Shown one piece after another: positions 7,019-27,639 of a DNA stretch of 64,000 nt; position 1 is the stretch's first letter; the number at the start of each line of letters is the position of its first letter. Where the stretch lies: contig CALXSJ010000012.1 in the NCBI GenBank assembly GCA_944391115.1, forward strand, positions 41,630 to 105,629, read 5' to 3'. A program made the position numbers and the translations under genes. Source of the stretch: an uncultured Victivallales bacterium. GTDB lineage: Bacteria > Verrucomicrobiota > Lentisphaeria > Victivallales > UBA1829. The notes under the pieces are model-generated. The model had not been told where the DNA came from. It ran no database searches and saw only the letters and a program-made list of their open reading frames with translations.

Positions 7019-7037
7019 ATCGGAGAACCCAAGAGAC

Positions 7038-9104: not shown

Positions 9105-9109
9105 TCGCC

Positions 9110-9631
9110 ATGCGTCATCTTAGGAAAGTAGCGAAACTCGGCCGCAACTGCGGCCATAGAAAGGCCATGCTTGTCAATATGGCATGCAGCCTGATTGAGC
9201 ACGAGCAGATCGAAACCACCGTGAACCGCGCAAAAGAGGTCCGCCGGCTTGTCGATCGTCTCGTCACATACGGGAAAAAAGGCGGCGAGCACAACCGCCG
9301 TCTGGCTATTGCCAGAATCAAGGACAACACCCCGTCCGACAAGGCCCAGACGAAGAAGGATGTGATTGCGAAGCTTTTCGGCGATCTTGCAGCCCGCTTC
9401 GCCGAGAGAAACGGCGGATACACAAGAATCATCCGTACCGGCAAGCGCATCGGCGATGCCGCAGACGCCTGCATTCTTCAGTTTGTGGAAGCCGGCGCTC
9501 CCGCTTCGAAGAAAAAAGCCGCCGCTCCTGCCGTGGAGACAGCCAAAGCGGATGAGACGCTCAAGGCCGAGCCTGCCGCTGAAACCGCCGCTCCCGCTGA
9601 GGAAGCAAAAACGGAAGAAGCCAAGGCATAA
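9110..9631 (+). CDS. rplQ: 50S ribosomal protein L17 (with Ala/Glu/Lys-rich C-terminal tail)
   Basis: MRHLRKVAKLGRNCGHRKAMLVNMACSLIEHEQIETT...GGYTRIIRTGKRIGDAADACILQFVE, followed by a low-complexity tail of about 45 aa. Confidence 0.95.
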   Translation: MRHLRKVAKLGRNCGHRKAMLVNMACSLIEHEQIETTVNRAKEVRRLVDRLVTYGKKGGEHNRRLAIARIKDNTPSDKAQTKKDVIAKLFGDLAARFAERNGGYTRIIRTGKRIGDAADACILQFVEAGAPASKKKAAAPAVETAKADETLKAEPAAETAAPAEEAKTEEAKA

Positions 9632-9652
9632 GTTTTTTCAGACTTCTGCAAG

Positions 9653-9685
9653 CCCCTGTCATGAACATCATGACGGGGGTTTTTT
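9653..9685 (+). terminator. intrinsic terminator of the r-protein/rpoA operon
   Basis: 11-bp stem cccctgtcatg/catgacggggg (one G-U pair), 5-nt loop, then T6. It begins 22 nt after the rplQ stop. Confidence 0.8.
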
Positions 9686-9780
9686 ATGTACGGGGGAATC
9701 TTCAAGGGTGCGGGACTGCGTTTTTCTCCAGCGGCCTGCGGGAAGACGCAAGGAGCCATAGCGGGGCCGTGGGAGCGTCC

Positions 9781-10542
9781 TTATTTTTGTATTTCCGCAT
9801 TTTCCCCGAGTGCGAGACGCACTTCTTCTTTTGTCAGATGACGCCATTTTCCGGGCGGCAGTCCGCCGAGGCGCAGTCCGCCGACGGCTATCCGCTTCAG
9901 ACGGCGGGTCTCCCGTCCGCTGGCTTCCAGCATCCGCCGCACTTCGCGGTTTTTCCCCTCGTGGAGCATGAATTTGTATTTCCCCGGCGCAATATGCTCG
10001 ACGCATTCGGCTTTCAGAATATCGCCGCCGCTGCGGACTCCCTCGTGCGTCAGGCGCCGGATTGCTTCCGGTGAGAGGTCACCGTCCGTGCTGACAAGGT
10101 AGATTTTGCGCACCTCGTAGCGGGGATGGGTCATTCTGGCGATGAAGGAGCCGTCGTTCGAGAACAGAAGCAGTCCCTCGCTGTCCTTGTCCAGGCGTCC
10201 CGCGGAGACGATCCGGATCTCCCGGGAGAGCGGGATCAGATCGACCGCCTTCTTTTTTGCATGCGGGTCCTCCATCGTGCAGACATAGCCGCGCGGTTTG
10301 TGGAGCATGATGTAAACGTAATCCCGGACAGGGGAGACGAGCTTTCCGCGCACGGTTACGCGGTCCTTCTGCGTGACGCGTTCTCCCGGGTTCCGCGCGG
10401 GAATCCCGTTGACGGAGACAATTCCGGCTTCGACCAGTTCCGCCGCACCGCGCCGGGAACAGACGCCGGATGCGCTCAGGTATTTGCTGAGATTCATCGA
10501 TCCGTCATTTGAGGATTGCGTTTCCATGGGAGCCCTTTTCAT
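9781..10542 (-). CDS. pseudouridine synthase, RsuA/RluB family (S4 domain + catalytic domain)
   Basis: S4-like LSKYLSASGVCSRRGAAELVEAGIVSVNG and catalytic GRLDKDSEGLLLFSNDG. Alternative in-frame ATGs lie at 10527 and 10497. Confidence 0.85.
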   Translation of the reverse strand: MKRAPMETQSSNDGSMNLSKYLSASGVCSRRGAAELVEAGIVSVNGIPARNPGERVTQKDRVTVRGKLVSPVRDYVYIMLHKPRGYVCTMEDPHAKKKAVDLIPLSREIRIVSAGRLDKDSEGLLLFSNDGSFIARMTHPRYEVRKIYLVSTDGDLSPEAIRRLTHEGVRSGGDILKAECVEHIAPGKYKFMLHEGKNREVRRMLEASGRETRRLKRIAVGGLRLGGLPPGKWRHLTKEEVRLALGENAEIQK

Positions 10543-13186: not shown

Positions 13187-13899
13187 CATTGCCGCAGAAG
13201 TCCCGCCAGTTCTTCCGTCGGCAGGAAAGGAACCGCGGGAACATGTTCCCGCAGAAGCTGATGCCCGGCGCTCTCCTTCGCCGCATGGAACAGGCAGACC
13301 GAGGGATGCAGTTCAAGGATTGAGGGAGAGACTTTTCCGCTCAGTTCAAGAACGGCGGCGATTCCGATGCGGTCGCAGAGCGTCAGGATTTCTTCGAGCG
13401 CATTCTGCGTATCGCGCAGCACCGTGAAATTGAATCCTTCGGCACGGCAGAGTTTTTCCAGTTCGTTTTCCTCCGGCACGGCGGTGAATTCATAGCGGCG
13501 GAATTGCGTTTCACTTCCGTTGAGAATCAGTTTCCTTTCGTCCGTCCACTCGGGAAAACGGATGCCGACGACTTTGTTGATGAGGTAGTATGCCTGTCCG
13601 TTCTTATGGAAAATCAGGCTCATTTCATAGAGCGAAGGCCGTCCGGCGGTATGGATGTGCCAGAGGTTCGGATTCCCGATCCTCGCTTTTTCGCGGAGGG
13701 GAACGCGGTTGCGTCCGGGGGCAATGACGACGCGGGCGGATTCAATCAGTTCCATTCCATCGATCCGGAACGAGACGATGAGCGTGGCGGGTTTTTCCGC
13801 GTCAATCTCGATGCACGGGGTGATCTCGACGAGTTTTCCGCCGTTGAGGCGTCTGATGTCCAGAGAAAAATCGATCCGTTCGAAAATTTCGTCTTCCAT
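13168..13899 (-). CDS. GH2-like internal fragment (Ig-like domain + start of TIM barrel); probable gene remnant
   Basis: NPNLWH...PSLYEMSL...VGIRF...LILNG...AEGFNFTVLR...LCDRIGIAAVLEL follows the beta-mannosidase/beta-galactosidase (GH2) domain-2 to barrel junction. The N-terminal sugar-binding domain and the catalytic strands are absent. Start taken at MEDEIF (complement of 13897-13899). The ORF-track extension to 14259 overlaps rnpB. Confidence 0.5.
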   Translation of the reverse strand: MEDEIFERIDFSLDIRRLNGGKLVEITPCIEIDAEKPATLIVSFRIDGMELIESARVVIAPGRNRVPLREKARIGNPNLWHIHTAGRPSLYEMSLIFHKNGQAYYLINKVVGIRFPEWTDERKLILNGSETQFRRYEFTAVPEENELEKLCRAEGFNFTVLRDTQNALEEILTLCDRIGIAAVLELSGKVSPSILELHPSVCLFHAAKESAGHQLLREHVPAVPFLPTEELAGLLRQCYSERA

Positions 13900-14020
13900 T
13901 GCTGTTTTCCGCTTCCGTGTTCCGTTTGCGCATCCGCTGTTTCCGGGGTAAGATAACGCACAAAACGGGAAAAACAATCCCGGAAGACTGGATTTTCCGC
14001 GAAATGGGCGTATATTGACG

Positions 14021-14377
14021 CCGGAGACGGCGGCAGGCGGCCGCCGGTCCTGTCGGGCCGGAGGAAAGTCCGGACTCCACAGAGCGGGGAGTCCCCTGCA
14101 CAAGGGGATGCCGGGGACGATATGCCCCGGAAAGGAAAGCGCAACAGAAAGCATACCGCCGGATGCGAATCCGGCAAGGGTGAAATGGCGGGGCAAGAGC
14201 CCGCCGGGAGCGGAAGCAATTCCCTCCGTCAAGGCAAGCCCCTCCCGGAGCAAGACCAAATAGGGGATGAGCCGTTGCTCGCGGCGTTTGAATCCCGGGT
14301 TCTGGTCGCATAGACAGATGGTCGCCGCCTCTTTTTCGGAAGAGGAACAGAATCCGGCTTACCGCCGCCGTCTCCGT
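14021..14377 (+). ncRNA. rnpB: RNase P RNA, bacterial type A
   Basis: GGAGGAAAGTCCGGACTCCACAGAGC (P4 5' strand), GGGTGAAATGGCGGGGCAAGAGCCCGCC, GCAAGACCAAATAGGGG and ACAGAATCCGGCTTAC (P4 3' strand). P1 pairing is GGAGACGGCGGC (14023-14034) with GCCGCCGTCTCC (14364-14375). TATATT lies at 14011-16 just upstream and a T8 run follows. Confidence 0.95.
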
Positions 14378-14509
14378 TTTTTTTGAGCGCATGCCCTTAC
14401 GGAAAAGGGAAGGCTTTGAACACTGTTTTGACGCAGTGGAACCCGCATTTCCGCGGAATGCGGACCTTTGCGGAACGCGCGGACTGCCGGGACCTCGGAC
14501 TGTTCGGAC

Positions 14510-14655: not shown

Positions 14656-15711
14656 TTACTGGAATTCGGAGAGTTTCTTTACGCCGATCTGGCTGTTCAG
14701 CTTCCGGAGCTGCTCCAGAAGTTCCGCGCAGCGGACCGCGTCCTCCTTCTGGCGCGCAGTTTTATATTCCTCCATGATTTTGGAGAATTCCGCTTTCTTT
14801 GCGCTGTCCGCCGCCGTGATTTTTTCAAGGGAACGGGCAAGCGCATCAAATTCCGTATGGTCCAGTTTCGGATTCCAGTCGAGGCTCTTCAACGTGTTGA
14901 AGACGGAGGCCGCCTGTTCCGAGAGGAAACGCGGCACGGCTTTGGAGGCCGGTTCGTTCAGGAAGGAGCCGAAGGCGAAAAGGATTTCCTTTGTTTCCGG
15001 TTTTCCCATCAGATAAACCCCTTTCGCGGCATGAAATCCGGCTTTCTGGATTTTATCGCTTTCATAGACCAGCAGATTGCCGAATTCTTCGAGATCAGCC
15101 CGGTTGTAGAAGGCGAACGCATTTCCTTCCGGCAGAATGTCGGGAACGATTCCGCGGAGCAGATAATCCTTGCTGCGGCTTGCCAGATGGCGTTCCCCGC
15201 CTTTTTTCAGCCACGGGGTTCCCGGCATGGCGTTGAAGACGAAATCATATTTTGTCATGTCCAGATTGAGGAACTCCAGTTTCGCGAAGACCCAGTCCGG
15301 CATGTCTTTTTTATGAAGAAAGCGGAGTTTGAGTTTTCCGGAGTCCGGAAGAGCCCATTCGAATTCGGCGATGATGCCGCCCGCATAGGGGGCATAGGTG
15401 ACTTTCGCCGGAATTCTGCTGAGCAGATTCTGATATTTGTTTTTTTCATAGAAGCGGAAAAAGAGCCAGCGGTCCCATCCGCCGTTGCGTCCGTGTTCGC
15501 CGAATGTCGCTCCGAACGAGGTGTTGGAGGTTGTGCCGTCCGGTTTTTTCGTGACGCTGTAGATCAGTTTCCCGCTGACCATCGGAAGATCATAGGTGGT
15601 CACCTTGAATTTTCCGTTCTTGTTTTCCACGTCTTTTTCCGTCACTTTCATGGCGCCGGAAAGCGCCGCCGCGGAGAGCAGCAGGCAGACGATCATGGAT
15701 GTTTTTTTCAT
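14656..15711 (-). CDS. exported protein of unknown function (last gene of cassette 2)
   Basis: 351 aa. Signal peptide MKKTSMIVCLLLSAAALSGA. Charged helical C-terminal tail. I recognise no family. 23-nt gap to the upstream gene. Confidence 0.75.
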   Translation of the reverse strand: MKKTSMIVCLLLSAAALSGAMKVTEKDVENKNGKFKVTTYDLPMVSGKLIYSVTKKPDGTTSNTSFGATFGEHGRNGGWDRWLFFRFYEKNKYQNLLSRIPAKVTYAPYAGGIIAEFEWALPDSGKLKLRFLHKKDMPDWVFAKLEFLNLDMTKYDFVFNAMPGTPWLKKGGERHLASRSKDYLLRGIVPDILPEGNAFAFYNRADLEEFGNLLVYESDKIQKAGFHAAKGVYLMGKPETKEILFAFGSFLNEPASKAVPRFLSEQAASVFNTLKSLDWNPKLDHTEFDALARSLEKITAADSAKKAEFSKIMEEYKTARQKEDAVRCAELLEQLRKLNSQIGVKKLSEFQ

Positions 15712-15734
15712 TTGCGATCTCCTTTTTGTCGTTT

Positions 15735-18700
15735 TTATGGTTCAAGATTGATGGTGTGTTTCCGCATGGAGCCGGTCAGAATGTCCGTGACGAGAAATTC
15801 ATATTTCCCGGCCGGGTCGCTGAGGGCGAAACGGAAGACGCACTTCGGTCCTTCCGCCGTGTCAAGGACCATGCCGCGGTTCCGCATCGCCTTTCCGTCC
15901 GGAGCGGAGACCGCAAGGTGAATGATCCGGTTTCCCGGCATGGAACTGAAATCGAAGCGGACAGCCGCGCCGGGTTTTGCGGAATCCGGCGCATGAAAGC
16001 GGAGTGGCGGCTGTTTTTCGTCGAAGGCGGCAAAAAGCTCCAGCGGCGAAGCGCTGAAATCCGGCACGATTTCGGCGCTCCTGCCGAGATAGCCTTTCCC
16101 GCAGCGGTAGATGTGTTTGGGGGAGGGGAGGCGGATACGGCCTTTGCTGCCCGGCGCGACGAAACGGTTGGCGACATGCGCGCCGATCAGGCGGAAGCCT
16201 TTGCCCGTCCGGATGCGCGCCATTCCATTGGAATCCGGGAGCGAGACGTCATACTCCGCGGAAACGCCCGCTCCTTTCAGCAGAGCAAGCAGAAACGCGT
16301 CGAACGGGGTTGCGTCTTCCGCCGTGACCTCAGCCATGGGGAGCGTGAAGTTCAGCAGAACGGCGCGTCCTTTTCCGCAGGTCCGGACCGTGCAGAATTC
16401 CGCACCCGGATTTGAGAGGGCTTTTTCCGCCCGGAAGTTCAGCATTTTCCCGTTCCACTTCCGCGTCACGGAGACACGCCGGACTTCCGGCGTTTTCAGA
16501 GTTGCGAGCGTCAGATCGCCGAAGAGTTCCGCAAGGGGATTTTTCCGGTTGACGCTGAAGCAGCTGTTCAGAAGCGCGCAGTTCATATCGGCGATCAGGG
16601 TTCCGCCGTTCCGGACGAAGCGGATCAGCGCCTGCGCCGTTTTGTCGCCGAGGACGGAGGTCCCCGCGAGGAAGAGCGTCCGGATGGAGCCGTTTTCAAG
16701 CCGTTCCATGGTCCGTTCGGAGACCATGTCGAAGTTGATTCCGCGCCGGTAAAGGAAGCGGACCAGCGGGGAAAGACTGTCCACCGGGGAGATCATGCGC
16801 TTGTCCAGTTCCGCCGCGCGTTTGGACGGATGACTCCAGAACAGCGCGAGTCCGGAGGAAAGCAGCGGCGTTTTGACCAGCAGTTCGCCTGTCCCGAAAC
16901 GCATCCGGTTCAGTTCCGCAATGAAGCCCGCGGGATAGGAGGGCGTGTTGTCCACTCCCAGGATGCACATGGTGGAATACTCGTCCACCTCATACCATCC
17001 CATGCCGTTGATTACGCCGCTGAGAAGATCCTGCAGAAGCAGGGGATATTTCCCCGCGCCGCGCTCGTTGTGGTATCCGTACCATACGGTCCGGAGACGT
17101 TCTCCGCCGAAACAGCGCATGGCCTCGCTGTCGAGCAGGTTGCGGTAGGGACCCCAGTATTCCATATCCCGGATCGTCAGTTCGATGTCGCCGGGCATTG
17201 AGCCTTCGGAGCCGACTTTCGCGCCGGGATCGATCCGCCGGATCTCCTCCGCGCAGAAATGATGGATGTCCGCATACATTTTTTCCATGTATTCCTGATG
17301 ATCGTTCCAGGCCGCCCAGTTTCCGGCTTTTCTCGCTTCCTCGAGCGTCGGGTGCGGCACCGCGGAGAAATCCGCAAAGGCGCTTTTCCATTCCCGGTTG
17401 AGAGCGTCGATCGTGCGGTATTTTTCCTTCAGGAACTCGCGGAAGTAGATTGCGTCGGAAGGGCCGAATCCGGCGTTGACGTTGTAATTGTTCTCATCGC
17501 CGAGCGAATAGACCGGAATCCCGTAGGGGGGTGTGTTTTTGATCCGGTGACGGATGGCGCCGCGCCAGATCTCCCGGACCTCGGGGCGGTAGAAGCAGGC
17601 GTCGCCGTCGACTTCCTTCGCCTTCTTCTTCAGCTCCGGCGGCAGGAAGTAGTTGTGGAAGAAGCGCAGGCCGCCCGTCTTGTTGTCGCGGACGAGCGCG
17701 ATGCTCAGCATGTAAGGGATCAGACGCTGATTCAGAAAGGCCGCCTCTCTTGCCGTGCCGGAGGAGAATTGTGTCAGACATGCGTTGAGCCCGAAGGTTT
17801 CGCTCAGCTGCATGGAGCCGGAAACGGAGCGGTTCAAACCCCATCCGTAGGCAAAATAAGGCGGGATGTCGCGGTTCGGGAAAAAGAGTTCGCAGTGGCG
17901 GCGTTCCGAAACTTTGCCGGCGGCGTCCTTCAGTTCCGCATAGAGGGTTCCCGCGATGGTTGGAATGAAGCGGTCGCTCCATGTGAACTCCTGCAGTCTG
18001 GCTCCCCGCGTCCAGGGAATTTTCTTTTCCGCCCAGACGCGTCCGTAAGGATGGTCGGCGAGGAGAAGGCGGAGTTCCGCCCCGTCTGCCGGAGCTTTCC
18101 CGAGCGAGAGACTCCCGCGGATGGATTCGTTTTTTCCGATGAACGCGTTCTGCACGCGCAGAGCCGCCCCTCCATGGCGCGAGGAGATTTTGAAGGCTCC
18201 GATGCCGAAATCGAGAGTTTCGCCGTTCTTCATGACGAAAACGTCGGCGTAATAGTCGCCTGCGGGCAGATCGGGAATTTCCGCCGTGTAAACGCCGTCC
18301 TTCCGCGCTTCCCGCTCTGCGGTCACATGGTTGAAGCCGTCCCGGATCCGGATTTTCACTGCCGCGCCCCGGTCGTCTCCCGCGAGTTTAACCTTGATCC
18401 CGCCGTTTTCCTCCGCGATGGACGCGATGGCGCATCCGTTGTCCCTGCCTGCGGCCCAGATCATGCTTTGCAGCAGAAATGCCTGACGGTTCTCATAGGC
18501 GGCATTGCGCAGCGCCCCTTCGGGGAGCGGCTTCACCTTGAACTGGAGCAGACGGCCTTTCCCGAACTGATACGCGGACAGTTCGTTTGGCTGGAGTGTG
18601 GCGGGAAAGCGTCCGGCAAAGGGATTTTTCCGCCGGTCCGCGATGACTTTGCGGTAGCGGATCGGCATCAGGCAGTCATAGACAAGCCCGGTTCCGTTGC

Positions 18701-19139
18701 GGAGCTTGTCCAGAATGATGAACTGGAGATCGTCCGGAAGCTTTTCGAACCATGCCCGGTAAAACACGATGACATCGTAATCCTCTTCCAGTTTCTTCCG
18801 CAGTTCCTGCTCCTTTTCCGCCGGCGAGGTTCCCGTCATCGTTCCTTCATAGACGTCGGTTCCCGCCAGGTTAGCCCAGTTGAGCATGGTGAAGTTTCTG
18901 AATTCCATCTTCATGCGCTGCGCATTCTCCGCCGCTTCGCGCGCATTCAGGCGTTCCGTGATGAACAGGACGCGCAGTGGCTTTCCCGCAAAGTTTCCGC
19001 CCCATTCCAGATGCGGCGTGACATAGCTCCGCCCGACCTCGTGCAGATACGTGCCGTCCACTTTCGCCGCGAGCGCCGGTGTTCCCGCGGCGCATCCCGC
19101 AAGGCAGAAGAGAGTCAGCATTTTGAGAGTCATTTTCAT
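15735..19139 (-). CDS. large exported putative glycoside hydrolase (GH42/beta-galactosidase-like central region)
   Basis: 1134 aa. Lipoprotein-like signal MKMTLKMLTLFCLAGC. Central SLGDENNY...LNREWKSAFADFS...DPGAKVGSEG resembles the GH42 barrel. A later GATase1-like trimerisation-type segment reads TLFLAGTSVLGDKTAQALIRFVRNGGTLIAD. The family call is tentative. Confidence 0.8.
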   Translation of the reverse strand: MKMTLKMLTLFCLAGCAAGTPALAAKVDGTYLHEVGRSYVTPHLEWGGNFAGKPLRVLFITERLNAREAAENAQRMKMEFRNFTMLNWANLAGTDVYEGTMTGTSPAEKEQELRKKLEEDYDVIVFYRAWFEKLPDDLQFIILDKLRNGTGLVYDCLMPIRYRKVIADRRKNPFAGRFPATLQPNELSAYQFGKGRLLQFKVKPLPEGALRNAAYENRQAFLLQSMIWAAGRDNGCAIASIAEENGGIKVKLAGDDRGAAVKIRIRDGFNHVTAEREARKDGVYTAEIPDLPAGDYYADVFVMKNGETLDFGIGAFKISSRHGGAALRVQNAFIGKNESIRGSLSLGKAPADGAELRLLLADHPYGRVWAEKKIPWTRGARLQEFTWSDRFIPTIAGTLYAELKDAAGKVSERRHCELFFPNRDIPPYFAYGWGLNRSVSGSMQLSETFGLNACLTQFSSGTAREAAFLNQRLIPYMLSIALVRDNKTGGLRFFHNYFLPPELKKKAKEVDGDACFYRPEVREIWRGAIRHRIKNTPPYGIPVYSLGDENNYNVNAGFGPSDAIYFREFLKEKYRTIDALNREWKSAFADFSAVPHPTLEEARKAGNWAAWNDHQEYMEKMYADIHHFCAEEIRRIDPGAKVGSEGSMPGDIELTIRDMEYWGPYRNLLDSEAMRCFGGERLRTVWYGYHNERGAGKYPLLLQDLLSGVINGMGWYEVDEYSTMCILGVDNTPSYPAGFIAELNRMRFGTGELLVKTPLLSSGLALFWSHPSKRAAELDKRMISPVDSLSPLVRFLYRRGINFDMVSERTMERLENGSIRTLFLAGTSVLGDKTAQALIRFVRNGGTLIADMNCALLNSCFSVNRKNPLAELFGDLTLATLKTPEVRRVSVTRKWNGKMLNFRAEKALSNPGAEFCTVRTCGKGRAVLLNFTLPMAEVTAEDATPFDAFLLALLKGAGVSAEYDVSLPDSNGMARIRTGKGFRLIGAHVANRFVAPGSKGRIRLPSPKHIYRCGKGYLGRSAEIVPDFSASPLELFAAFDEKQPPLRFHAPDSAKPGAAVRFDFSSMPGNRIIHLAVSAPDGKAMRNRGMVLDTAEGPKCVFRFALSDPAGKYEFLVTDILTGSMRKHTINLEP

Positions 19140-19155
19140 TGCAGTTGTTTTCCTT

Positions 19156-20181
19156 TCAGTTGAATTCGCCCTGCAGACGTATTTTCCAGTAAAGTTTTTT
19201 CAGTTTTCCGCATTTTTCCTGATACTGGAAGAAACGCGGGAGCCCCTCCAGATCAGGCGGAGCGCATAGCGACTCGAATTCCTTCCGGTCCGCGCTGTTT
19301 TTCCCGTGTTCCGCCAGAGGACGGACTTTTCCGGCTTCTTTTTTCCATTCCTTTTCCGCACGTTTCAGGAAGAGGTCCGCCTTTTCCGTTTTCACTCCGC
19401 TTCCGTCGTTGTACAGAATTCCGTCCCGGATCTGCAGGAGCCAGGGGGCTGGGGTCATCGGATCGAGCACTGCGCCGATCCGTTTCAAATCCATCGGCGT
19501 TTTTCCGTCCGTGAAGCAGATCCGTGTGAACGCAGTGGTGTTCATATAGTTGCCGTTGGGGGAGGAAACCGCGCCGATGAATCCGTTCGGCCAGGCGAAT
19601 CTGGCATGGAGAAAGCCCCATACGTCTCCGGGATGTCCCTGCGCGCCGAGATCGCTCCACGGGAAAAACGCCTCAATGCTCCAGCGGTCCGCCTCCACGG
19701 AAGTTTTCGCCATCCAGCCGATGCCGCTCCATTCGTTCAGCGTCACCGACGCATCGAGCCGCATCATGTCCGCGGTGCAGCCGATGGCATTTACGATAAA
19801 GCGGCGGTATCCGATGCCGTCCCCGGCGGGGTCGAAATAGATTTCCGCGCAGTCGTCCGTCCAGAGATCAGGGGAATCGAACGCCTGGATGAACTTCCGG
19901 ATTTTCGAGCTGTCTCCATGATTTGTCACGCCAAGATAGATACCCTTTTCGTCATATGCCATGCGGAATTCCGTTTTCAGCGGAGAGGGTTTCGGATTTG
20001 TCTTGAAGTATTCGTAATAGGCGGTATGCGCGGGGATGTCGCGCCATCCCGCATCCGTGAGCCGTCCGTCCAGAGTGATCGGGGTTTTCAGCGGGTGCAC
20101 GGCATAGAAGGAGAGTTCCTGCCAGTCGGCGGCGGCCGTCAGGAGCGCGCCTGCGGCAATCGTGGAAATGAAGAGTTTCAT
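19156..20181 (-). CDS. exported CBM9/DOMON-like carbohydrate-binding protein
   Basis: Start at MKLFISTIAAGALLTAAA (signal peptide, complement of 20179-20181). ITLDGRLTDAGWRDIPAHTAYYEYF...DDCAEIYFDP is typical of CBM9-like domains. Confidence 0.75.
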   Translation of the reverse strand: MKLFISTIAAGALLTAAADWQELSFYAVHPLKTPITLDGRLTDAGWRDIPAHTAYYEYFKTNPKPSPLKTEFRMAYDEKGIYLGVTNHGDSSKIRKFIQAFDSPDLWTDDCAEIYFDPAGDGIGYRRFIVNAIGCTADMMRLDASVTLNEWSGIGWMAKTSVEADRWSIEAFFPWSDLGAQGHPGDVWGFLHARFAWPNGFIGAVSSPNGNYMNTTAFTRICFTDGKTPMDLKRIGAVLDPMTPAPWLLQIRDGILYNDGSGVKTEKADLFLKRAEKEWKKEAGKVRPLAEHGKNSADRKEFESLCAPPDLEGLPRFFQYQEKCGKLKKLYWKIRLQGEFN

Positions 20182-20201
20182 GCGGGTCCTTGTTTTCCGG
20201 G

Positions 20202-20942
20202 TTACAGGTTGGGGAATTTGCAGTAGCTTTCGTATCCGGCTTTGAGTTCGCCGTTGACGAAATAATTGAAGATCAGAAACATGGTTGCCATTCCCGGGTA
20301 GGAATAAATGCACGGAACATCCCTGGACTTCCGGTTTTCCGCATGACCGTCCCAGAAAGAGACATTGACCGTTCCGGAATGCCGCCAGAATGCCGCCGCA
20401 TCGCCTCCGTTCAGACTCGATGGAGTCCATATGGAGAAATTCTTCACATCCAGAAGCAGGCTGGTGCGCGACGGACGGGGCAGGGAGCCGAGGCGGTGTG
20501 CGGAGACGGCTGTCCAGCTGCTTCCTCCGCCCTCGACCGCATACTGATTCACTCCGTAGCTGGTCGCGTTCGTTCCGAGCGAAGGATCCTCAGGCGCATT
20601 CGGGCGCAGTTCCTCCGGGGTCGTGTTCGGACACGTGAAGATGCTCGGCCCCCGGTAGTGCGAGTCCAGATACATGCGCTCCTTGGGAATCTTGTAAAGC
20701 TCCGCAAGCAGATCCTGGTACATCATCATGTTTCCCATGTTTTTGGGGGAGGGCAGATAGCTGTTGTAGTCGTTGCCGTAGAGCAGAAAATAGTGCGTGA
20801 GCTGCCGGACGTTTCCGAGACATTTGATCTTCTTTGCGGTTTCCCGCGCCTTGCCGAGGGCGGGAAGAAGCATCCCCGCAAGCACCGCGATAATCGCAAT
20901 TACAACAAGAAGTTCTATCAGCGTGAATGATTTTCTTGCCAT
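20202..20942 (-). CDS. prepilin-type N-terminal domain / H-X9-DG pseudopilin-like protein
   Basis: [48 protein letters not shown] and C-terminal [13 protein letters not shown] (H-X9-DG). 13-nt gap to the upstream regulator gene. Confidence 0.9.
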
Positions 20943-20955
20943 TTTTTCTCCCGTG

Positions 20956-22059
20956 TCATGTCTGACGTTTGATTAAATAAGGTTTCAGGATGATTTCTTC
21001 ATTTTCCGCATGATTGAGGATGCATTCCGCCGCGGCCTTTCCGATCTCATGTTCGCGGATGCAGATGGAGGTCAGTTCCGGATAGAGGATGGTTCCCCAT
21101 CCGGTATTGTAGAGCCCGATCAGGTTCAGTTCCCTGCCGATCGGCACGTTGCAGCGGTGCGCGGTTCTGTAAACGGAGGGAAGATACGAGTCGCCCGGAG
21201 CGAAAATTCCGCCGCGGCCTTTTCTGCAGAACTCCTCCAGCTGATTGTGGAATTCCGTCGGGCTGTCATGATAAAGAGGGGAGTGCAGAATTTCCAGAGT
21301 CCCGGGATCGATGCCCGCATCTGCGAGAACTTCGGAAAAGCCCTCGAGCATCCGGTTGACTCCGATGTCCAGCCCTCCGTTGCTGGCGAGTTCGGCGGGA
21401 TTGAGGGGGCCGGGGATGATCGCCCCCAGACGCCGCTGCCCGCAGGAGAGAAGGTGGCGCGCGGCGATTCTTCCCGTTTCCCGGTAGTCGAATGTGATCA
21501 GATTGGAGCCGGGAAAATCCAGATCCGTCTCCCGGAAAACCAGAAAATTCAGCTGCCGGATTTTGCGCAGGAGCCGGTGCAGGGCCCGGAAGCGGTTGTG
21601 GCGGCTTCCGTATATGACAAGGGATTCAAAATCGTTTTCCACAAAGCTCCGGATCCGTTTGTCCCGCTCCATGAAGGTCATGGGTTCGAGGGAGCAGAGG
21701 CTGACAAAATAGCGTCCGCAGGGTTCCAGGACCGTGGCCATGCTGCTGCGCAGATTGGAGAAGAGATCGTCTCCTTCGCCGAGGATGAGTCCCACCTGAT
21801 GATGTCTCTTCCCTTCGGCTTTTCCGGTGTCGTCGTCCGTATCCTGATTTTCGATGAAGACGCCTTTGCCCGGATGCCGCCTGAGCCAGCCCTGCGTTTC
21901 CAGTTCCCGGATCGCGTTGGCAAGCGTCACCTGCGTGGTGTGGAAATCCGCCGCGAGGCGCCGATAGGTCGGGAGACGGCTGCCCGGAGGAAATTCCCCG
22001 GACTGGATTTTTTTCAGGATGCTTTCACTGATCCGCAGATATTTTTTTTCTTCTTCCAT
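20956..22059 (-). CDS. GntR-family HTH regulator with LacI-type sugar-binding domain (AraR-like)
   Basis: N-terminal winged HTH ([43 protein letters not shown]), then a periplasmic-binding-protein-like fold ([27 protein letters not shown]). Confidence 0.85.
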
Positions 22060-22077
22060 GACGCGCTCTTGATAAAT

Positions 22078-22089
22078 TGCTATATAGCA
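22078..22089. promoter_or_regulatory. perfect 12-bp palindrome TGCTATATAGCA (candidate operator)
   Basis: It lies between the predicted -10 (22101-22106) and the regulator ATG (22059). A third ATAGCA half-site lies 3 nt away (minus-strand reading: ATAGCA-aac-TGCTATATAGCA). Confidence 0.5.
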
Positions 22090-22100
22090 GTTTGCTATTA

Positions 22101-22128
22101 ATTATACTTGAAAAAAAGAGATTGTCAA
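22101..22128 (-). promoter_or_regulatory. consensus sigma70 promoter of the cassette-2 regulator/operon
   Basis: The minus strand reads TTGACA (22128-22123), 16 nt, TATAAT (22106-22101). An A8-TA-T7 tract lies just upstream at 22140-22156. Confidence 0.6.
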
Positions 22129-22208
22129 TAGCGGAAAAGAAAAAAAATATTTTTTTACGGATTTTCGGCAGGCAGGGAAAGAGGCGGATGGCGCAAGAGA
22201 GAACGAAT

Positions 22209-22247
22209 GCCGGTTGTCGCAGGAGAATTTCCGCAACCGGCTTTTTT
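22209..22247. terminator. hairpin + T6, terminator-like element between cassettes 3 and 2
   Basis: gccggttg...caaccggc stem followed by tttttt on the plus strand. On the minus strand the hairpin is followed by a moderately T-rich stretch. It lies 135 nt downstream of the stop at 22383. Confidence 0.4.
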
Positions 22248-22382: not shown

Positions 22383-25013
22383 TCAGTCCCGGATGGCTTT
22401 CCGGCAGTTTTGCAGAACATTTTCATATTCCGGTGTTTCTGCAAGGACAAAAACAGGGGTCGGGCCCAGTGAAAACGCACGTTCTGTTTTTTTGCGCAGG
22501 TCGTTTCCCATTACGTCACAGACCAGATAGGAAGAGGGGAGGCGCGAAAGGTCGAATTTCCGGCGCCCTTCCGTCGCTGCGTCGTCGTGTATGGTGAATG
22601 CGGTTCTCCCCTTGCCGGAGAAAAGAGCCTGCACCACTCCTTTTTCCGGAGGGAAGGGGCGTGGATCGAGTCCGTCAATGAACCATGCCGTCACTGCGGT
22701 TGCCGCGGCGGAGACCGTGGGGGTCCGGTCGTATTCGATCAGCATTTTATAACCTCCGCGGTATGACATGGTGTCCGTCTGGTGAAGCGTGTAATAGAAA
22801 AATTTCCCGATACCGGCCTTTTTCTGTTCAATCCAGATGCGCGATCCGGCGGCAGCCGCTTCGCTGTGTTCCTCCCGGCGGGAACGGAAACTGTAGAAGA
22901 GCGAACGGAAGCCGCCCCAGGATCCTTCCGTGTTCCAGTATTCTCCCGGGTCGCGCAATGTCAGGATTTTTTTTCGAAATTCCTCCAGATCGTTTTTGAC
23001 GGACAGTGTTCCATCGCCGGGTGGGTGCTGGAAATAAACATGGAAGGATACGGCATCGATTCCGCTGATTTCCGACTTGGGAAGCTTTGCGATGAATCCT
23101 GCTGTCGTCAGTTCCGAGCACCATCCGAGGACCTTTGCGTTCGGATTGCCTTCCTTCAGGGCTTTGAACGCCGCCTGGAAGAGTTCCGCGAACTGCTGCG
23201 CGTCACCCGGATAGAAATAACTGATGTAAGGTTCGTTCCAGATCTCCCATGTGTCAATCCGTCCCCGGTAATGCTCCGCTGCCTTCCTGCACCAGTCGGC
23301 ATAGATTTTCACATGGATCGGATTGCCTTTCCCCCCGCCGCTGCGCCTGGCATGGGGCGCCGGATAATCAGGCAGTCCGAGGATGTGAAATCCCGCTTTC
23401 AGGATGGCATCCACGGCCTCATCCTTCCATTGATATTTTCCCGGCTCAGGATTGCCCCATTTCATTTTGGTGATATTGGAACAGTCATGCAGGCGCTGCC
23501 ACCGGAATCCGAGGCGTTTTGCGTAATCTATAAAATAAGGACGCACCGCGAAATGGGTCCCGAAAAAACTTTCCGCACCGATATCATTCCGCGGCTCAGG
23601 AAGCCGTGCCGCGACATTTTCATGCATGGCGGCAGCAGCGGGATCCTCCGGAATCAGCATCAGGCGCATGATTCCGTTGACGCCGGGTTCAAGTTCTTTT
23701 TTCAATGTCTTTCCTGGTGTCAACACGACCTTTTCCTCCAGAACGGTCCGTTCCGGATATGCGACAACTTTCAATGTTGCCGGAATTTCCTTTGCCAGTC
23801 CGCCTTTGATCGCAGGCCAGGCCGAGAGAAGAAGCTGCAGCTTTTTCCCCCAAGGCACGATGTTCGGCAGTCCGTCCTCGAGCGCCGCCTCGATTTCGTA
23901 AGGGTGCGACGGTTTGTATTCCGAGGCTTTTGAACCCGCTTCAAATTGAATGCCGTCCACAAAGACTTCCGCAGGGCCGCTCTTCTGAAATTCGATCCGG
24001 ACACTGTCTATGAGATCGGGGACAACGCCCGAGGTTATGGAATAACGTTTCCAATCTTTCCCCGGCCGGATCAGCCGTGTTGCCTTTAGGTGCTTGCCAT
24101 TGACTTTTTGACTTTGGAATCCGCACCAGAGCGCGGCATTTCCCCGGCTCTTCATCCAGAATGAGAGGGTGTAGGGGGATCCGGAGGCGACGGGAATGTC
24201 CAGACTCTGCACATTCATCGCAAGCCCCCGGCCTCCTGTTTTCACCGGATCAAGGACGAAACAGTGTTTCCCGAATTTTCCTTCTTTGTCCGTCCGTCGG
24301 AACCCGGGATCTTCCCATTGCAGATCCGGATTGTTGCCCGTGAGCGAAACGGACCAGAAGGGATTCCTGGCGATTTCACAGGAGGAGTTCGGAATCAGAT
24401 TGCCCCGCACCAGCGGGTTTGCGTTTCTGCGGACAACGGCTTTTTCCGGATTTTCCTGAAACTCTTCCACGCGGATGTCGTCGATCATGATCCTGCCCAT
24501 TCCCGCACTGGAAAACATGACCCCGAAATCACGATCAATGTCCGTTCCTCCGGGTCCTGAAAAGGAATATTCCCTCCATTCGTTCGAGGGACGGAAGCGG
24601 ATGCCGCGAATGAGAACTTTCCAGGCGACAATTCTGCGGACCTTGGCCTCCACTGTTCCGCTGAAATCAATTCCTTTTGCCCGGAAGGAGATCTTATAGA
24701 AACGGTTGCGCGCCATGGTCCAGGGTGCGGTCCAGAACTGCATTTCCCCCTGACTGATCCCTTTGATATGGATCTGCAGTCCAGTGCCGCGGTAACCCTG
24801 GCAGGGCCGTATTTCGATTTCTTTTTTCCCCCATGTGTAATTGTTGGTGAAATCCGCCGGATAGGTATCCATTCCCCGGTGGGTTTTCCAGTTGCGGCAG
24901 TTTTCAAAGTCCCACACGCGGACAGTCTGACCTTCCAGAGATACGGTTTCCGCTTTTCCTGTCAGAGCGGAAAGCATTGCCGGAATCAGAAAGGCGGACA
25001 GAATGTTTTTCAT
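22383..25013 (-). CDS. exported multi-domain glycoside hydrolase (CBM-like N-terminal domains + clan GH-A TIM barrel)
   Basis: 876 aa. Signal peptide MKNILSAFLIPAMLSALTGKA. The WEIWNEP motif is the GH-A acid/base NEP. N-terminal beta-sandwich regions resemble CBM4_9-type modules. Confidence 0.85.
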   Translation of the reverse strand: MKNILSAFLIPAMLSALTGKAETVSLEGQTVRVWDFENCRNWKTHRGMDTYPADFTNNYTWGKKEIEIRPCQGYRGTGLQIHIKGISQGEMQFWTAPWTMARNRFYKISFRAKGIDFSGTVEAKVRRIVAWKVLIRGIRFRPSNEWREYSFSGPGGTDIDRDFGVMFSSAGMGRIMIDDIRVEEFQENPEKAVVRRNANPLVRGNLIPNSSCEIARNPFWSVSLTGNNPDLQWEDPGFRRTDKEGKFGKHCFVLDPVKTGGRGLAMNVQSLDIPVASGSPYTLSFWMKSRGNAALWCGFQSQKVNGKHLKATRLIRPGKDWKRYSITSGVVPDLIDSVRIEFQKSGPAEVFVDGIQFEAGSKASEYKPSHPYEIEAALEDGLPNIVPWGKKLQLLLSAWPAIKGGLAKEIPATLKVVAYPERTVLEEKVVLTPGKTLKKELEPGVNGIMRLMLIPEDPAAAAMHENVAARLPEPRNDIGAESFFGTHFAVRPYFIDYAKRLGFRWQRLHDCSNITKMKWGNPEPGKYQWKDEAVDAILKAGFHILGLPDYPAPHARRSGGGKGNPIHVKIYADWCRKAAEHYRGRIDTWEIWNEPYISYFYPGDAQQFAELFQAAFKALKEGNPNAKVLGWCSELTTAGFIAKLPKSEISGIDAVSFHVYFQHPPGDGTLSVKNDLEEFRKKILTLRDPGEYWNTEGSWGGFRSLFYSFRSRREEHSEAAAAGSRIWIEQKKAGIGKFFYYTLHQTDTMSYRGGYKMLIEYDRTPTVSAAATAVTAWFIDGLDPRPFPPEKGVVQALFSGKGRTAFTIHDDAATEGRRKFDLSRLPSSYLVCDVMGNDLRKKTERAFSLGPTPVFVLAETPEYENVLQNCRKAIRD

Positions 25014-25028
25014 AAAGGTCTCCCAGTT

Positions 25029-25469
25029 TCATTGTTCGTAAATTTCAATTTCGTAAATCCCGTAACTCTGCCATTTCGTTCCCGGTTTTTCCAGACGGAT
25101 CCTGATGAAGCGCGTTTCTACCGTGGAAAATCCGAATGCGTCGATTCCGCCTGCTCCGTTATCGGTTTTCGCGACTTCCCGGAACGTTTTCCTGTCTTTG
25201 GATACTTGTATGGAAAAGTGTTCCGCAAAACATGTCTGCCAGTAAATGATGACACAGCCCACGTTGCGGATTTCTCCCAGATCCACCATGATCCACTGCC
25301 GTTCCCTCTGTCGTGAGGACCAGTGAGTCCGGATGTCTCCATCAATGCTTTTCGAGGCATTTTTCAGATTTTCACTTGCCGTGGCGTATCCATTCCGCGC
25401 CAGGTTGTCCTCCATGGCAAGGACCATGGAAATACTGAAGAATAATACCGGTATCATAAGATATCTCAT
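25029..25469 (-). CDS. exported F5/8 type C (discoidin) domain protein
   Basis: Start at MRYLMIPVLFFSISMVLA (complement of 25467-25469). SIDGDIRTHWSS...QWIMVDLGEIRNVGCVIIYWQ...FSIQVSKDRKTF...YGIYEIEIYE is a classic discoidin pattern. Confidence 0.8.
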   Translation of the reverse strand: MRYLMIPVLFFSISMVLAMEDNLARNGYATASENLKNASKSIDGDIRTHWSSRQRERQWIMVDLGEIRNVGCVIIYWQTCFAEHFSIQVSKDRKTFREVAKTDNGAGGIDAFGFSTVETRFIRIRLEKPGTKWQSYGIYEIEIYEQ

Positions 25470-25491
25470 CGCATTTCTCCTTTCCGAATAT

Positions 25492-26157
25492 TCAGAATCC
25501 GATATTCCTGCACTTTGCGGCGATGCCGGCGGAAGCCAGCGCTTCGACATGCATATCCAGAAACAGAAAGTTTGTTTTCCCCTGATGATTGTATCCGAAA
25601 AGCTCCCGTCGCTTTGTTTCCGTGCTTTTTACTGTTCCGTTAAACTCCTGAATCCAGGAGGAACCGGAGCCGCCGTCGGCGCGGAGAAAATTGTTGGTCG
25701 GATGCGTGATTTTCGCATATAGAAAGACGGTGTGACGCATATAGGGGTCCGGGATTTCCGCGCTGGATTTCCCCGTTTCCCTGCTGGAAAGAAGCGGTGA
25801 GATGCCATACCATCCGGAATTTTTGTATCCGGTACTGTCTTTCGTTCGAGCGCTTTCCTGCGGACAGGCGAAAATTCCCGTCCTTTTGTTTCTTGCTTTT
25901 TGCATTGTCACGACATCCGGATAACCTGCATAAGAGAAAACATGGTTGTAAAAATACTGTCCGGTGAACAGCCAGCCTCTCGAATCATCAGTGTAACAGA
26001 GAAAACAATAGCCCTGTTGCCTCAGGTTGTTGACGCATTGAATGGATCGTCCCCTCCGACGGACCTGATTCAAGGCGGGAAGCAGAATGGAGACGAGAAG
26101 AGCAATGACACCAATAACAATTAAAAGCTCTAAAAGTGTGAATTGTTTTCTCTGCAT
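25492..26157 (-). CDS. prepilin-type N-terminal domain / H-X9-DG-like pseudopilin-like protein
   Basis: MQRKQFTLLELLIVIGVIALLVSILLPALNQVRRRGRSIQCVNNLRQ. The C-terminal HQGKTNFLFLDMH is an H-X9-DM variant. Confidence 0.85.
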   Translation of the reverse strand: MQRKQFTLLELLIVIGVIALLVSILLPALNQVRRRGRSIQCVNNLRQQGYCFLCYTDDSRGWLFTGQYFYNHVFSYAGYPDVVTMQKARNKRTGIFACPQESARTKDSTGYKNSGWYGISPLLSSRETGKSSAEIPDPYMRHTVFLYAKITHPTNNFLRADGGSGSSWIQEFNGTVKSTETKRRELFGYNHQGKTNFLFLDMHVEALASAGIAAKCRNIGF

Positions 26158-26259
26158 ATTCCTGTCCTCCCTGTTTTGTTGAAAATGCTCGTTTCCTGCC
26201 CGGATTTCTCCCTTGCGGAGAAAGATGATCCTCGAATCCGCGGCATGGCTCTTCCTGTT

Positions 26260-27591
26260 TCATCCATTCTGCATCACTGCCAGTTTTTCATCCATGCATT
26301 TTCGTATCAGCTCCGGATTCGCTCCGAAGAATTCATGCTGTTCATATAAAGCAGCCAGCACTGCGATTTCTTCCTTGCTCAGGAGATCCCGTGTAAGAAA
26401 CACGGTTCCTTCCTGCGGAAAAAACCAGCGGAAATCTTCTCTTGTCATCCATGGATGATCTTCCGGGCGCATGTCTTTCCGCGGAGAAATCATTCCGGAC
26501 AGCGCCGCCAGTTTCTTCTGAGTTTCCCGGGAAAGCAGCTCCTTGAGGAAGAGCCAGAGACGTTTTTTCTCCGATATGGTTACGGTATGATTTGCAAAAG
26601 CCTGAAGAGGAACACTCCGCCAGGACAGCAGATGGCGCTTCCCGCACATTTTCGGGATGATCCGGAAAGCTTCCGGAAGCATTCCTCGCCGTCCCGCCTG
26701 AATCGATATCCAGGAGCCGATATTGAAGCTCAGGGCGCATGAGCCGTCAAGAAAGGGGGTCTGTTCATTTCGCGTCGCATGCAGATCTCCCATAATACGG
26801 AACATTCTCTTTCCGGCTTTCGTATGGAAAAAAGGTGTCCGGAAAAGCCTTTCAACGGAATTCCTCTCATTGGCCATGATGATTTCCGCAAGCGGCTGAA
26901 GGGGAAAACTCCAGAGCGTGTCCGTGAAATAATTTTTGACCGCGGGAACAATTCGTTCTCTGCGGCAGGCTGCTGCAAAAGATTTCCACCACTCCATAGA
27001 GGAGAGTTCCGTGATCCTGTTTTCAAAACCGGTTTTCTTCAGCAGCGGCAGGTTTACCGCTCCCTGAGCGGAAAGGCAGTAAAAGGGAACCAGCGTGCCT
27101 CCCCGTTCCGGAACAGCTTCGGAAAATTCCGACATGAAGTCTCCGTAATCCGGAAAACAGGAAAAATCCATCTGCGGTCCGCTGCTTTTCATCCATGGAT
27201 CGAATTCTGAAAGAATAACCTTGTGGGTGCTTGCAGAAGCGTCCAGTTCTTTTTTCAGATAGCGTTTCTTCAGGATGAAATTCAAGTTCAGCTGATGTTT
27301 TTCGGAAATTTCCGACAGGATTTTTTTCAATTCCGCAAAATCGAACAGTGTTTCCTGGAGATAAAACTCGACATCCAGCACATCTCCGCCGTTCAGAAAC
27401 GAACCGACACCGTTGACAATCCGGATTTTGCCCTCCTGCTCCAGTTTTTTGAACGAGCGTTGAGCTGTTGTGTAGGTGATTCCGAAACGGTCACAGATTT
27501 CCGCATATTTAGGCAGCTTGTCACCGGGGCGGAGCTTGTTTTCCGAGATGAGACGGTCCAGATGATTTCTGATTGTTTCCGTTACAGACAT
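26260..27591 (-). CDS. GntR-family HTH regulator with large C-terminal ligand-binding-like domain of unassigned fold
   Basis: HTH DKLPKYAEICDRFGITYTTAQRSFKKLEQEGKIRIVNGVGSFL. I moved the start to MSVTETI (complement of 27589-27591) because a consensus promoter lies inside the ORF-track N-terminal extension. Confidence 0.8.
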   Translation of the reverse strand: MSVTETIRNHLDRLISENKLRPGDKLPKYAEICDRFGITYTTAQRSFKKLEQEGKIRIVNGVGSFLNGGDVLDVEFYLQETLFDFAELKKILSEISEKHQLNLNFILKKRYLKKELDASASTHKVILSEFDPWMKSSGPQMDFSCFPDYGDFMSEFSEAVPERGGTLVPFYCLSAQGAVNLPLLKKTGFENRITELSSMEWWKSFAAACRRERIVPAVKNYFTDTLWSFPLQPLAEIIMANERNSVERLFRTPFFHTKAGKRMFRIMGDLHATRNEQTPFLDGSCALSFNIGSWISIQAGRRGMLPEAFRIIPKMCGKRHLLSWRSVPLQAFANHTVTISEKKRLWLFLKELLSRETQKKLAALSGMISPRKDMRPEDHPWMTREDFRWFFPQEGTVFLTRDLLSKEEIAVLAALYEQHEFFGANPELIRKCMDEKLAVMQNG

Positions 27592-27620
27592 TGCCGTTTT
27601 GTGCTTTCCATGAAAAGATA

Positions 27621-27636
27621 TGCTATGTATATAGCT
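27621..27636. promoter_or_regulatory. inverted repeat AGCTATATACATAGCA (candidate operator)
   Basis: The minus strand reads AGCTAT-ATAC-ATAGCA, starting 3 nt after the -10. It shares the GCTATATA...GCA core with the palindrome at 22078-22089. Confidence 0.45.
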
Positions 27637-27639
27637 TTT

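Follow-up and report, generated by a model that had tools for sequence, protein, structure and literature searches.

We analysed a stretch of 64,000 nucleotides from contig CALXSJ010000012.1 of an uncultured Victivallales bacterium of the gut (referred to as the window, in whose numbering its features are given) and found that a gene for a pilin-like protein lies in each of four carbohydrate operons of this stretch. The RpoA of the window falls into a 90% cluster, the named members of which are metagenome-assembled genomes of Victivallales, Lentisphaeria and Lentisphaerae. This report deals mainly with the second of these operons, cassette 2, where the pilin-like gene directly follows the gene for a GntR/LacI-type sugar regulator. 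That the pilin-like gene is a stable, co-regulated and cassette-specific part of glycan operons is borne out by synteny with relatives at no more than 46-56% identity of the pilin-like protein and by a variable head next to a helix that is near invariant. Our reading of this arrangement, to which we give a probability of about 0.4, is that the pilin-like protein may belong, as a subunit induced by sugar and specific to its operon, to a type IV filament machine that is shared, and that its variable head would handle the glycan at the envelope.

The cassette 2 operon runs on the minus strand from 22128 to 14509 and consists of one consensus promoter, a palindromic candidate operator, five genes and one terminator. 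The genes code, in this order, for a 367-residue regulator with a GntR winged-helix domain and a LacI-type sugar-binding domain (20956-22059; PF00392 58.7 bits, PF13377 37.3 bits), the 246-residue pilin-like H-X9-DG protein (20202-20942), a 341-residue CBM9-like protein with a signal peptide and a helical C-terminal tail (19156-20181; CBM9_1 24.6 bits, cut-off 23.4), a 1134-residue GH42-like glycoside hydrolase with a signal peptide and a lipobox, LAGC (15735-19139; PF02449 35.6 bits, partial), and a 351-residue protein with a signal peptide and no family match (14656-15711). Of the families that the initial annotation had given to these five proteins, those of the regulator, the CBM9-like protein and the enzyme were recovered in the profile searches, the GH42 match being partial, and the last protein again had none. 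On re-reading, the five genes are co-directional with gaps of exactly 13, 20, 16 and 23 nucleotides, as had been claimed, and the ribosome-binding sites GGGAG, AAGGA, AAGGA and AAGGAG precede the ATGs of genes 2 to 5. For the third gene the mechanical open reading frame (ORF) extends to 20430 (424 residues); the start giving 341 residues was taken from the gene calls of three metagenome contigs that carry an identical operon with the same gene calls throughout. The signal peptides on all three downstream proteins were judged by eye and agree with those described before. Profile searches of the five proteins matched no transporter family, so the operon is indeed without SusC/D, ABC or other transporter genes, and no SusC or SusD homolog was found by such searches in any of the four cassettes of the window.

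The single promoter and the single terminator of the operon were likewise confirmed. The promoter, a sigma-70-type TTGACA-16-TATAAT at 22128-22101, matches the consensus at 12 of 12 positions and is one of only two perfect TTGACA/TATAAT promoters in 14.2 kb, the second being the one that heads cassette 3. The intrinsic terminator at 14541-14509 was read directly from the sequence and has an 8-bp stem and a 10-nucleotide loop (ATCCGGCA-N10-TGCCGGAT) followed by a run of seven T; the automatic hairpin scan missed it because it allows loops of up to 8 nucleotides. Between the -10 hexamer and the ATG of the regulator, at 22078-22089, lies the predicted operator TGCTATATAGCA, which is a perfect 12-nucleotide palindrome. 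Two orthologous cassettes at other loci, L093 and L004, have the same promoter layout and keep the promoter and a palindromic element in the same place. The element of L093 (about 618-629) is TGTTATATAACA, in which the two half-sites differ from those of cassette 2 by one and the same change, and that of L004 (about 5360-5372) is AAACTGCTATATA, which is kept. Cassette 3 has, besides its own perfect promoter, a related GCTAT...ATAGC element. The palindrome has the look of a site for a dimeric repressor and is likely to be the operator of the GntR/LacI-type regulator. Judged from this layout, the cassette 2 operon is probably auto-repressed and would be opened when a sugar binds to the Peripla_BP_3 domain of the regulator.

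The 246-residue protein has the N-terminus of a prepilin. It passes the cut-offs of PF07963 (28.5 bits against 21.2) and TIGR02532 (21.4 against 16.3), and its short basic leader MARKS is followed by Phe at +1, Glu at +5 and a hydrophobic helix. The copies of cassettes 1 and 4 also pass TIGR02532, and the copy of cassette 3 shows the prepilin motif by eye only. The second motif, H-X9-DG, occupies residues 188-199 and continues into a histidine (H188-X9-D198-G199-H200). Among 96 homologs F6, E10 (the Glu at +5) and the whole N-terminal helix are at least 90% conserved, and so are C41, C104, P64, P105, H188, N193, D198, G199 and H200. The initial annotation had expected both the prepilin and the H-X9-DG profiles to apply; the prepilin part of this held for cassette 2, whereas its copy scores 15.8 with TIGR04294, below the cut-off of 19, and does not match PF07596. 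The cassette 1 copy passes TIGR04294 with 23.6 bits, PF07596 (cut-off 23.3) is matched by the copies of cassettes 1 (23.4) and 4 (24.4), and many full-length homologs of the 246-residue protein carry it. By sequence the protein belongs to the H-X9-DG/DUF1559 family as a divergent member, and its named homologs are from Lentisphaeria. The T2SS (type II secretion system) models GspG (27.8 bits, cut-off 88.85) and GspH (26.7 bits, cut-off 80) match only the N-terminal 30-60 residues. With GspG that far below its cut-off and matching at the N-terminus only, and with no gsp operon around the gene, the possibility that the protein is an equivalog of GspG-K was rejected. Similarly, a sequence search of the PDB matched only the N-terminal helix of PilA and GspG. 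The AlphaFold2 model, built on the homolog alignment, has a predicted local distance difference test score (pLDDT) of 88.6 and a predicted template modelling score (pTM) of 0.84. It consists of a 51-residue helix (residues 8-58) and then strands at 129-132, 161-166, 191-196 and 201-205, the H-X9-DG motif extending over the third and fourth strands and the short turn that joins them. In the model this layout of a helix and then four strands is as expected of a pilin. A solute-binding protein fold was considered for the head and rejected, as the modelled head, of about 190 residues, is small and mostly beta and is not two-lobed.

The two parts of the protein are conserved to very different degrees. 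The majority-residue frequency is 0.93 over residues 6-33, the 28 first mature residues, and 0.29 over residues 34-246. Third codon positions in the conserved segment vary freely among the four copies in the window; the constraint on the N-terminus therefore acts on the protein, and the idea that the conserved 5' coding segment is a repeat at the DNA level or a product of gene conversion was rejected for the same reason. A protein-level constraint on the helix is what would be expected if it docks with a shared partner. The heads of the four paralogs are only 23-25% identical to each other, and orthologs of the cassette 2 head in other metagenomes are 65, 56 and 46% identical to it. A search with the head alone against 1.84 billion cluster representatives gave only 325 matches at E ≤ 1e-3 and three at E ≤ 1e-30; the head evolves fast. 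The simplest way to explain a helix that does not vary under hundreds of different heads is that all helices have the same partner and that the partner of the head differs from copy to copy. The common partner would be the assembly platform of a type IV filament together with the filament core, and the variable partner could be a glycan, to be captured, retained or imported, or the enzymes of the cassette, to be exported or displayed.

The five-gene order of cassette 2 is kept in relatives across the range of 46-56% identity given above, and since the orthologs, wherever flanking DNA is available, sit in the same gene order the pilin-like gene has been inherited with the cassette. In L093 the order is regulator, pilin-like gene and CBM9-like gene, and in L006 it is pilin-like gene, a gene for 347 residues and a long gene. 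The loci L004 and L005 have a regulator, two pilin-like genes, a CBM9-like gene, a gene for a GH42-like protein of 1162 residues, a gene for a 379-residue protein and then a third pilin-like gene. The 379-residue protein of L004 is 30% identical to the 351-residue protein of cassette 2 (E = 7e-48) and has the same position. The pilin-like genes of L004 are at 6581-7207, 7204-7980 and 13779-14501, the first two being adjacent with an overlap of 4 nucleotides, and the presence of three such genes hints at a multi-subunit assembly. The enzyme module itself is also found without a pilin-like gene, namely at two Armatimonadota loci, L090 and L091, where a GH42-like gene is accompanied by a CBM9-like gene whose product has a helical tail and is homologous to the 341-residue protein (E = 8e-22). 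The pilin is thus a lineage-specific add-on to enzymes that are otherwise self-sufficient, and not part of the enzyme. The module of L090 (8001-18802) is duplicated in tandem and that of L091 is at 5162-10284; L090 also has a protein of about 380 residues in the position of the 351-residue protein, and BLASTP found no significant similarity between the two.

The family of the 1134-residue enzyme is rare (7 matches at E ≤ 1e-10), and a scan of metagenomes with a three-sequence alignment of the CBM9-like protein gave four loci. PF02449 covers only profile positions 108-235 of 376 in the enzyme. The model of the enzyme is of low confidence (pLDDT 62) and poor over the core; Foldseek placed GH42, GH35 and GH164 first with it, at E about 1e-13 and template modelling (TM) scores of 0.17-0.26. 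On the strength of this weak model the enzyme would be GH42/GH35/GH164-like in overall architecture only. Its signal peptide (19092-19139) ends in the lipobox LFCLAGC, and the enzyme is probably a lipoprotein. For the 351-residue protein there was no match in Pfam, NCBIfam or the PDB.

Whether pilin-like genes keep such company elsewhere was surveyed at 80 loci (L010-L089) that carry relatives of the pilin-like protein in species-representative genomes, in which genes were called and the neighbours were scanned by position. The neighbour directly upstream carries a Peripla_BP_3 domain in 14 of 65 cases, the DNA-binding domain being GntR in 10 and LacI in 4, compared with 0 of 110 at control positions at a distance of five or six genes (Fisher p = 3.6e-7). 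With a home-made hidden Markov model, a same-strand regulator, at most three genes upstream, was found at 12/28 Lentisphaerota loci, 0/23 Verrucomicrobiota loci and 0/7 Planctomycetota loci, and in the surveyed loci it was never found downstream of the pilin-like gene. The enrichment of regulators beside pilin-like genes that had been anticipated is real and position-specific, but it is confined to Lentisphaerota. Downstream neighbours are diverse, with an emphasis on carbohydrates, and include DUF4838, GH78 rhamnosidase, pectate-lyase, beta-helix, LamG, sulfatase and 3-keto-disaccharide hydrolase proteins, and also phosphoglucose isomerase and SSF transporters. Secreted-looking proteins are enriched there: at the Lentisphaerota loci, N-termini resembling signal peptides, called with a crude, home-made heuristic, occur in 16/49 same-strand genes at positions +1 to +4 and in 11/157 elsewhere (p = 2e-5). 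At one surveyed locus, L016, a phosphoglucose isomerase gene follows the pilin-like gene and no secreted partner adjoins it, and at L009 the pilin-like gene is found among cytoplasmic-type enzymes and a transporter.

A six-frame motif scan of the window gave exactly four pilin-like genes, each beside a sugar regulator. The earlier count of four H-X9-DG genes in 64 kb stands for the pilin-like genes as such, while the exact motif is present in three of them, the copy of cassette 3 having H-X9-DM. Cassette 3 (22383-27668, minus strand) starts from its promoter at 27668-27640 and has family matches for a GntR regulator (26260-27591), an F5/8 type C lectin-like protein (about 25029-25469) and an 876-residue CBM4_9/GH39-like protein (22383-25013), with the pilin-like gene, identified by the motif scan, at 25492-26157. 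The G+C content of cassette 3, taken over 24000-28000, is 0.49-0.51 compared with 0.57-0.60 around it, and the whole cassette may have been acquired recently by horizontal transfer. A GC-rich hairpin, GCCGGTTGC...GCGACAACCGGC, at 22205-22245 lies between the end of cassette 3 at 22383 and the promoter of cassette 2, and it probably insulates the two co-directional cassettes from each other. Cassette 4 (38790-43818, plus strand) has a promoter, TTGTCA-17-TATAAT, near 38790-38818, a pilin-like gene found by the motif scan that ends at 39790 and has its motif at 39056, and family matches for a 999-residue protein with LamG and pectate-lyase folds, the gene of which extends to 42707, and for a GntR/PBP regulator (42769-43818). 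Just upstream of it, at 33517-38251, are genes for an 853-residue protein without a family and a 744-residue protein with a weak match to the six-hairpin rhamnosidases, and these two have no pilin-like gene of their own. Cassette 1 (2111-5846, mixed strands) had been described at 4042-5846 as the same module, and it is in fact different in kind: two convergent and overlapping genes code for AraC regulators (2111-2956, plus strand, and 2916-3866, minus strand), a family match identifies a cytoplasmic xylose-isomerase-like TIM barrel (4042-5034, plus strand), and the pilin-like gene from the motif scan (5031-5846, plus strand), whose start overlaps the TIM-barrel stop by 4 nucleotides, has no gene for a secreted protein beside it. 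A HAD hydrolase gene follows the pilin-like gene of cassette 1 (region 2111-6673).

In the mechanism that we propose for cassette 2, the sugar would relieve repression by the GntR/LacI-type regulator of the operon and the pilin-like protein, with its class III signal, would be made only then. Its near-invariant N-terminal helix would dock into one shared type IV filament machine, T2SS-like or pilus-like, that is encoded elsewhere in the genome. The fast-evolving, operon-specific head would capture or hold the polysaccharide, or fragments of it, at the envelope for the lectin-like protein and the GH42-like enzyme. One machine with many substrate-specific plug-in subunits would then be a pilus-based counterpart of SusD/SusC.

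The sequences show the structure of the operon, the type of its regulator, the pilin-like N-terminus and predicted fold, the cassette-specific orthology and the association with regulators and with secreted-looking proteins; filament assembly, the identity of the machine, glycan binding by the head and the direction, that is capture rather than export, are what we infer. Several observations weigh against this reading. A Foldseek search of the PDB with the confident model of the pilin-like protein gave nothing below E = 1, the best match (E = 1.5) being to the helix only, and because of this the head is not assignable to a solved pilin class. The window ORFs that were scanned included none for an ATPase, a platform protein, a secretin or a prepilin peptidase, and since there is thus no T2SS or pilus machine gene in the 64-kb window, the link to a machine is one that we infer in every model. 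A homolog search with the PilB-like ATPase of L091 gave no match in Lentisphaerota, and the one secretin gene that adjoins a pilin-like gene in the survey, at L057, belongs to Sedimentisphaerales and not to Lentisphaerota. SSF transporters are present in some homologous cassettes, which also weakens the statement in the initial annotation that the pilin-like gene stands where a transporter would be expected. The presence of secreted enzymes directly downstream in most cassettes fits export equally well.

The residue at -1 is a further difficulty. Known prepilin peptidases need Gly at this position and tolerate Ala poorly, and a Gly(-1) requirement of the prepilin peptidase was reportedly described by Strom and Lory in 1991. 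In the codon before the FTLIELL motif the window copies have S (20928-20930, cassette 2), Q (26143-26145, cassette 3), C (39053-39055, cassette 4) and F (5112-5114, cassette 1), so that Gly(-1) is found in 0/4 of them; in the surveyed loci it is found in 2/37 Lentisphaerota copies, where R, S, P, K, T, N, D and I are seen, and among close homologs in 5/95. By comparison, G or A is present in every one of the 32 Verrucomicrobiota and 10 Planctomycetota copies. Among the homologs found by the head alone, 40/128 have G or A at -1 and 127/128 have F at +1. Because the Lentisphaerota copies are without Gly(-1), canonical prepilin processing is in doubt, and to judge from these residues either Lentisphaerota have a peptidase of relaxed specificity or their pilin-like proteins are uncleaved. 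The earlier proposal of a substrate-specific adaptor for a shared T2SS or pilus machine is partly supported: the cassette specificity and the co-regulation hold, and the remainder finds no support in the genes of the window or in the residue at -1.

The secreted enzymes could be explained differently if the head recognised the folded enzymes of its cassette in the periplasm, the protein being a cassette-specific minor pseudopilin through which a shared T2SS would export or display them. Large proteins with signal peptides are encoded directly downstream in three of the four window cassettes and at many related loci, and these include DUF4838, GH78 rhamnosidase, pectate-lyase-fold, sulfatase and LamG proteins. 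The three pilin-like genes of L004 are reminiscent of a multi-subunit pseudopilus tip, and the lipobox of the 1134-residue enzyme recalls pullulanase, the archetypal T2SS substrate, which is a lipoprotein. For the alginate lyases of Verruconatronum alginivorum T2SS export has been proposed by the authors of that study (PMC13274419). A pure secretion adaptor does not agree with cassette 1, which has the cytoplasmic TIM-barrel enzyme only and therefore no secreted cargo at all, and L016 and L009 are similar; moreover, Gly(-1) and nearby T2SS genes are missing for this explanation too. T2SS substrates are not known to need a dedicated pseudopilin. We consider export a serious rival, though unlikely on balance, and lean to the glycan side because cassette 1 and L016 have no secreted partner and L009 is mixed with cytoplasmic-type enzymes, because a private pseudopilin is not needed by known T2SS substrates, and because pili-like fibres of Planctomycetes bind dextran (PMC5394234) and the related Kiritimatiella is without TonB-dependent glycan importers (PMC5148204).

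It is also conceivable that the protein belongs to no filament and that an uncleaved signal anchor keeps it in the inner membrane, its periplasmic head serving as a binding protein, chaperone or sensor that is specific to the operon. This would account for the fact that any residue is accepted at -1 in Lentisphaerota and that no machine genes are nearby. It would also suit the Pfam name SBP_bac_10, from which alone an older paper labelled DUF1559 as solute-binding (PMC2754498), and there is a precedent in the Sulfolobus bindosome, in which sugar-handling proteins have pilin-type, class III signals and depend on a pilus-like assembly system (PMC3047682). In hundreds of paralogs, however, purifying selection has kept F1, E5 and 28 residues about 93% conserved, and a mere anchor would not bring this about. 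E5 is needed for filament assembly. In addition, the model shows a long helix and then a few strands and not a two-lobed binding-protein fold, and the cassettes have no ABC transporter. We regard the anchor as a serious rival as well, though a rather unlikely one. Least probable of all, in our judgement, is that the proteins have no cassette-specific role and are generic, redundant structural pilins of an expanding paralog family that lie near sugar operons because such operons are abundant. The family is certainly enormous, with more than 7659 matches among those listed and 68 paralogs in P. limnophila (PMC10632474) and 67 in V. alginivorum (PMC13274419), and the window is rich in carbohydrate genes generally. 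But chance proximity would hardly put the regulator directly upstream in the same orientation and never downstream, when the control positions have it in 0/110 cases; nor would it keep an ortholog in the same five-gene order down to 46% identity, or produce the translational coupling or tight spacing with the neighbours.

DUF1559/H-X9-DG proteins are among the largest uncharacterised paralog families of Planctomycetes, Verrucomicrobia and Lentisphaerae, and these phyla are major degraders of polysaccharides in oceans, sediments and guts that bind and import glycans without SusC/D-type systems. The finding reported here gives the family a concrete context, namely that of the first or an early structural gene in carbohydrate-active enzyme (CAZyme) operons controlled by sugar repressors. 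Should the involvement of a type IV filament machine be borne out, it would be a new way to give substrate specificity to a pilus or secretion machine, and it would improve the annotation of thousands of genes now called 'type II secretion system protein' in genomes of the Planctomycetes-Verrucomicrobia-Chlamydiae (PVC) superphylum. The loss of Gly(-1) in Lentisphaerota predicts an unusual, relaxed peptidase or an unprocessed pilin. A broader statement, that the H-X9-DG/DUF1559 family is the substrate-specificity layer of a pilus-based system for polysaccharide capture and import (or enzyme export) in the PVC superphylum, with a processing in Lentisphaerota that no longer needs Gly(-1), is in our view doubtful; if it were true, one machine with hundreds of interchangeable heads, each of them encoded and induced together with a sugar operon of its own, would be the long-sought functional counterpart of SusC/D.

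Among known systems, the pul regulon of Klebsiella is an instructive comparison: it is induced by maltose, and pilin-like subunits are co-regulated in it with pullulanase, a secreted and lipidated glycoside hydrolase. The T2SS pseudopilins GspG-K of this kind resemble cassette 2 in the co-regulation by sugar of a pilin-like subunit and a lipidated hydrolase, and the helix of the 246-residue protein matches GspG and GspH. They differ in that the 246-residue protein is almost twice the size of GspG, in that there is one pilin-like gene per enzyme operon as opposed to five in the gsp operon, and in that no gspD, gspE or gspF is near cassette 2. Competence pseudopili bind DNA and pull it in. Together with these pseudopili, the fibres of Planctomycetes, the proteins of which are still unidentified (PMC12673574), offer the example of a type IV filament that captures a polymer at the surface and brings it to or through the outer membrane, as is proposed for cassette 2, although for the Victivallales bacterium neither a secretin nor a retraction ATPase is known. 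The proteins of the Sulfolobus bindosome are the binding proteins of archaeal ABC transporters, whereas the head in cassette 2 is a small domain for which no binding-protein fold is predicted, and no ABC transporter adjoins its gene.

The closest relatives are the H-X9-DG/DUF1559 proteins of the PVC superphylum, which share with the 246-residue protein the prepilin N-terminus, a head of about 200 residues, the C-terminal H-X9-DG and the membership in large paralogous families; the cassette 2 copy differs from them in being below the TIGR04294 cut-off and without PF07596, and the Lentisphaerota copies in being without Gly or Ala at -1. Their function was still called unknown in 2023 (PMC10632474), which concurs with the initial annotation that it has not been established experimentally, and we found no functional study of H-X9-DG/DUF1559 proteins, or of a prepilin with a CAZyme, in the literature searched. 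The nearest case is that of V. alginivorum, where a study of 2026 described a pulG-like gene inside an alginate operon that proteomics showed to be induced as a unit, and a further pseudopilin that is over-expressed on alginate; it suggests T2SS export in one sentence and is the only paper we found with such a gene inside a polysaccharide operon (PMC13274419). As judged from the description of the operon, it is like cassette 2 in having a pilin-like gene in an induced polysaccharide operon, and unlike it in being from Verrucomicrobiota and in having also a TonB-dependent porin and a uronate transporter. The association of a pilin-like gene with a polysaccharide operon therefore has independent support from proteomics and is already partly in the literature. 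Like the polysaccharide utilization loci of Bacteroidota, the cassettes are repeated, substrate-specific sets of a regulator, enzymes and a glycan-binding protein; they have no homolog of SusC or SusD, and the analogy is functional only. The family in cassette 2 is thus a known one, but its operon architecture had barely been described and the logic of its specificity had not been worked out before.

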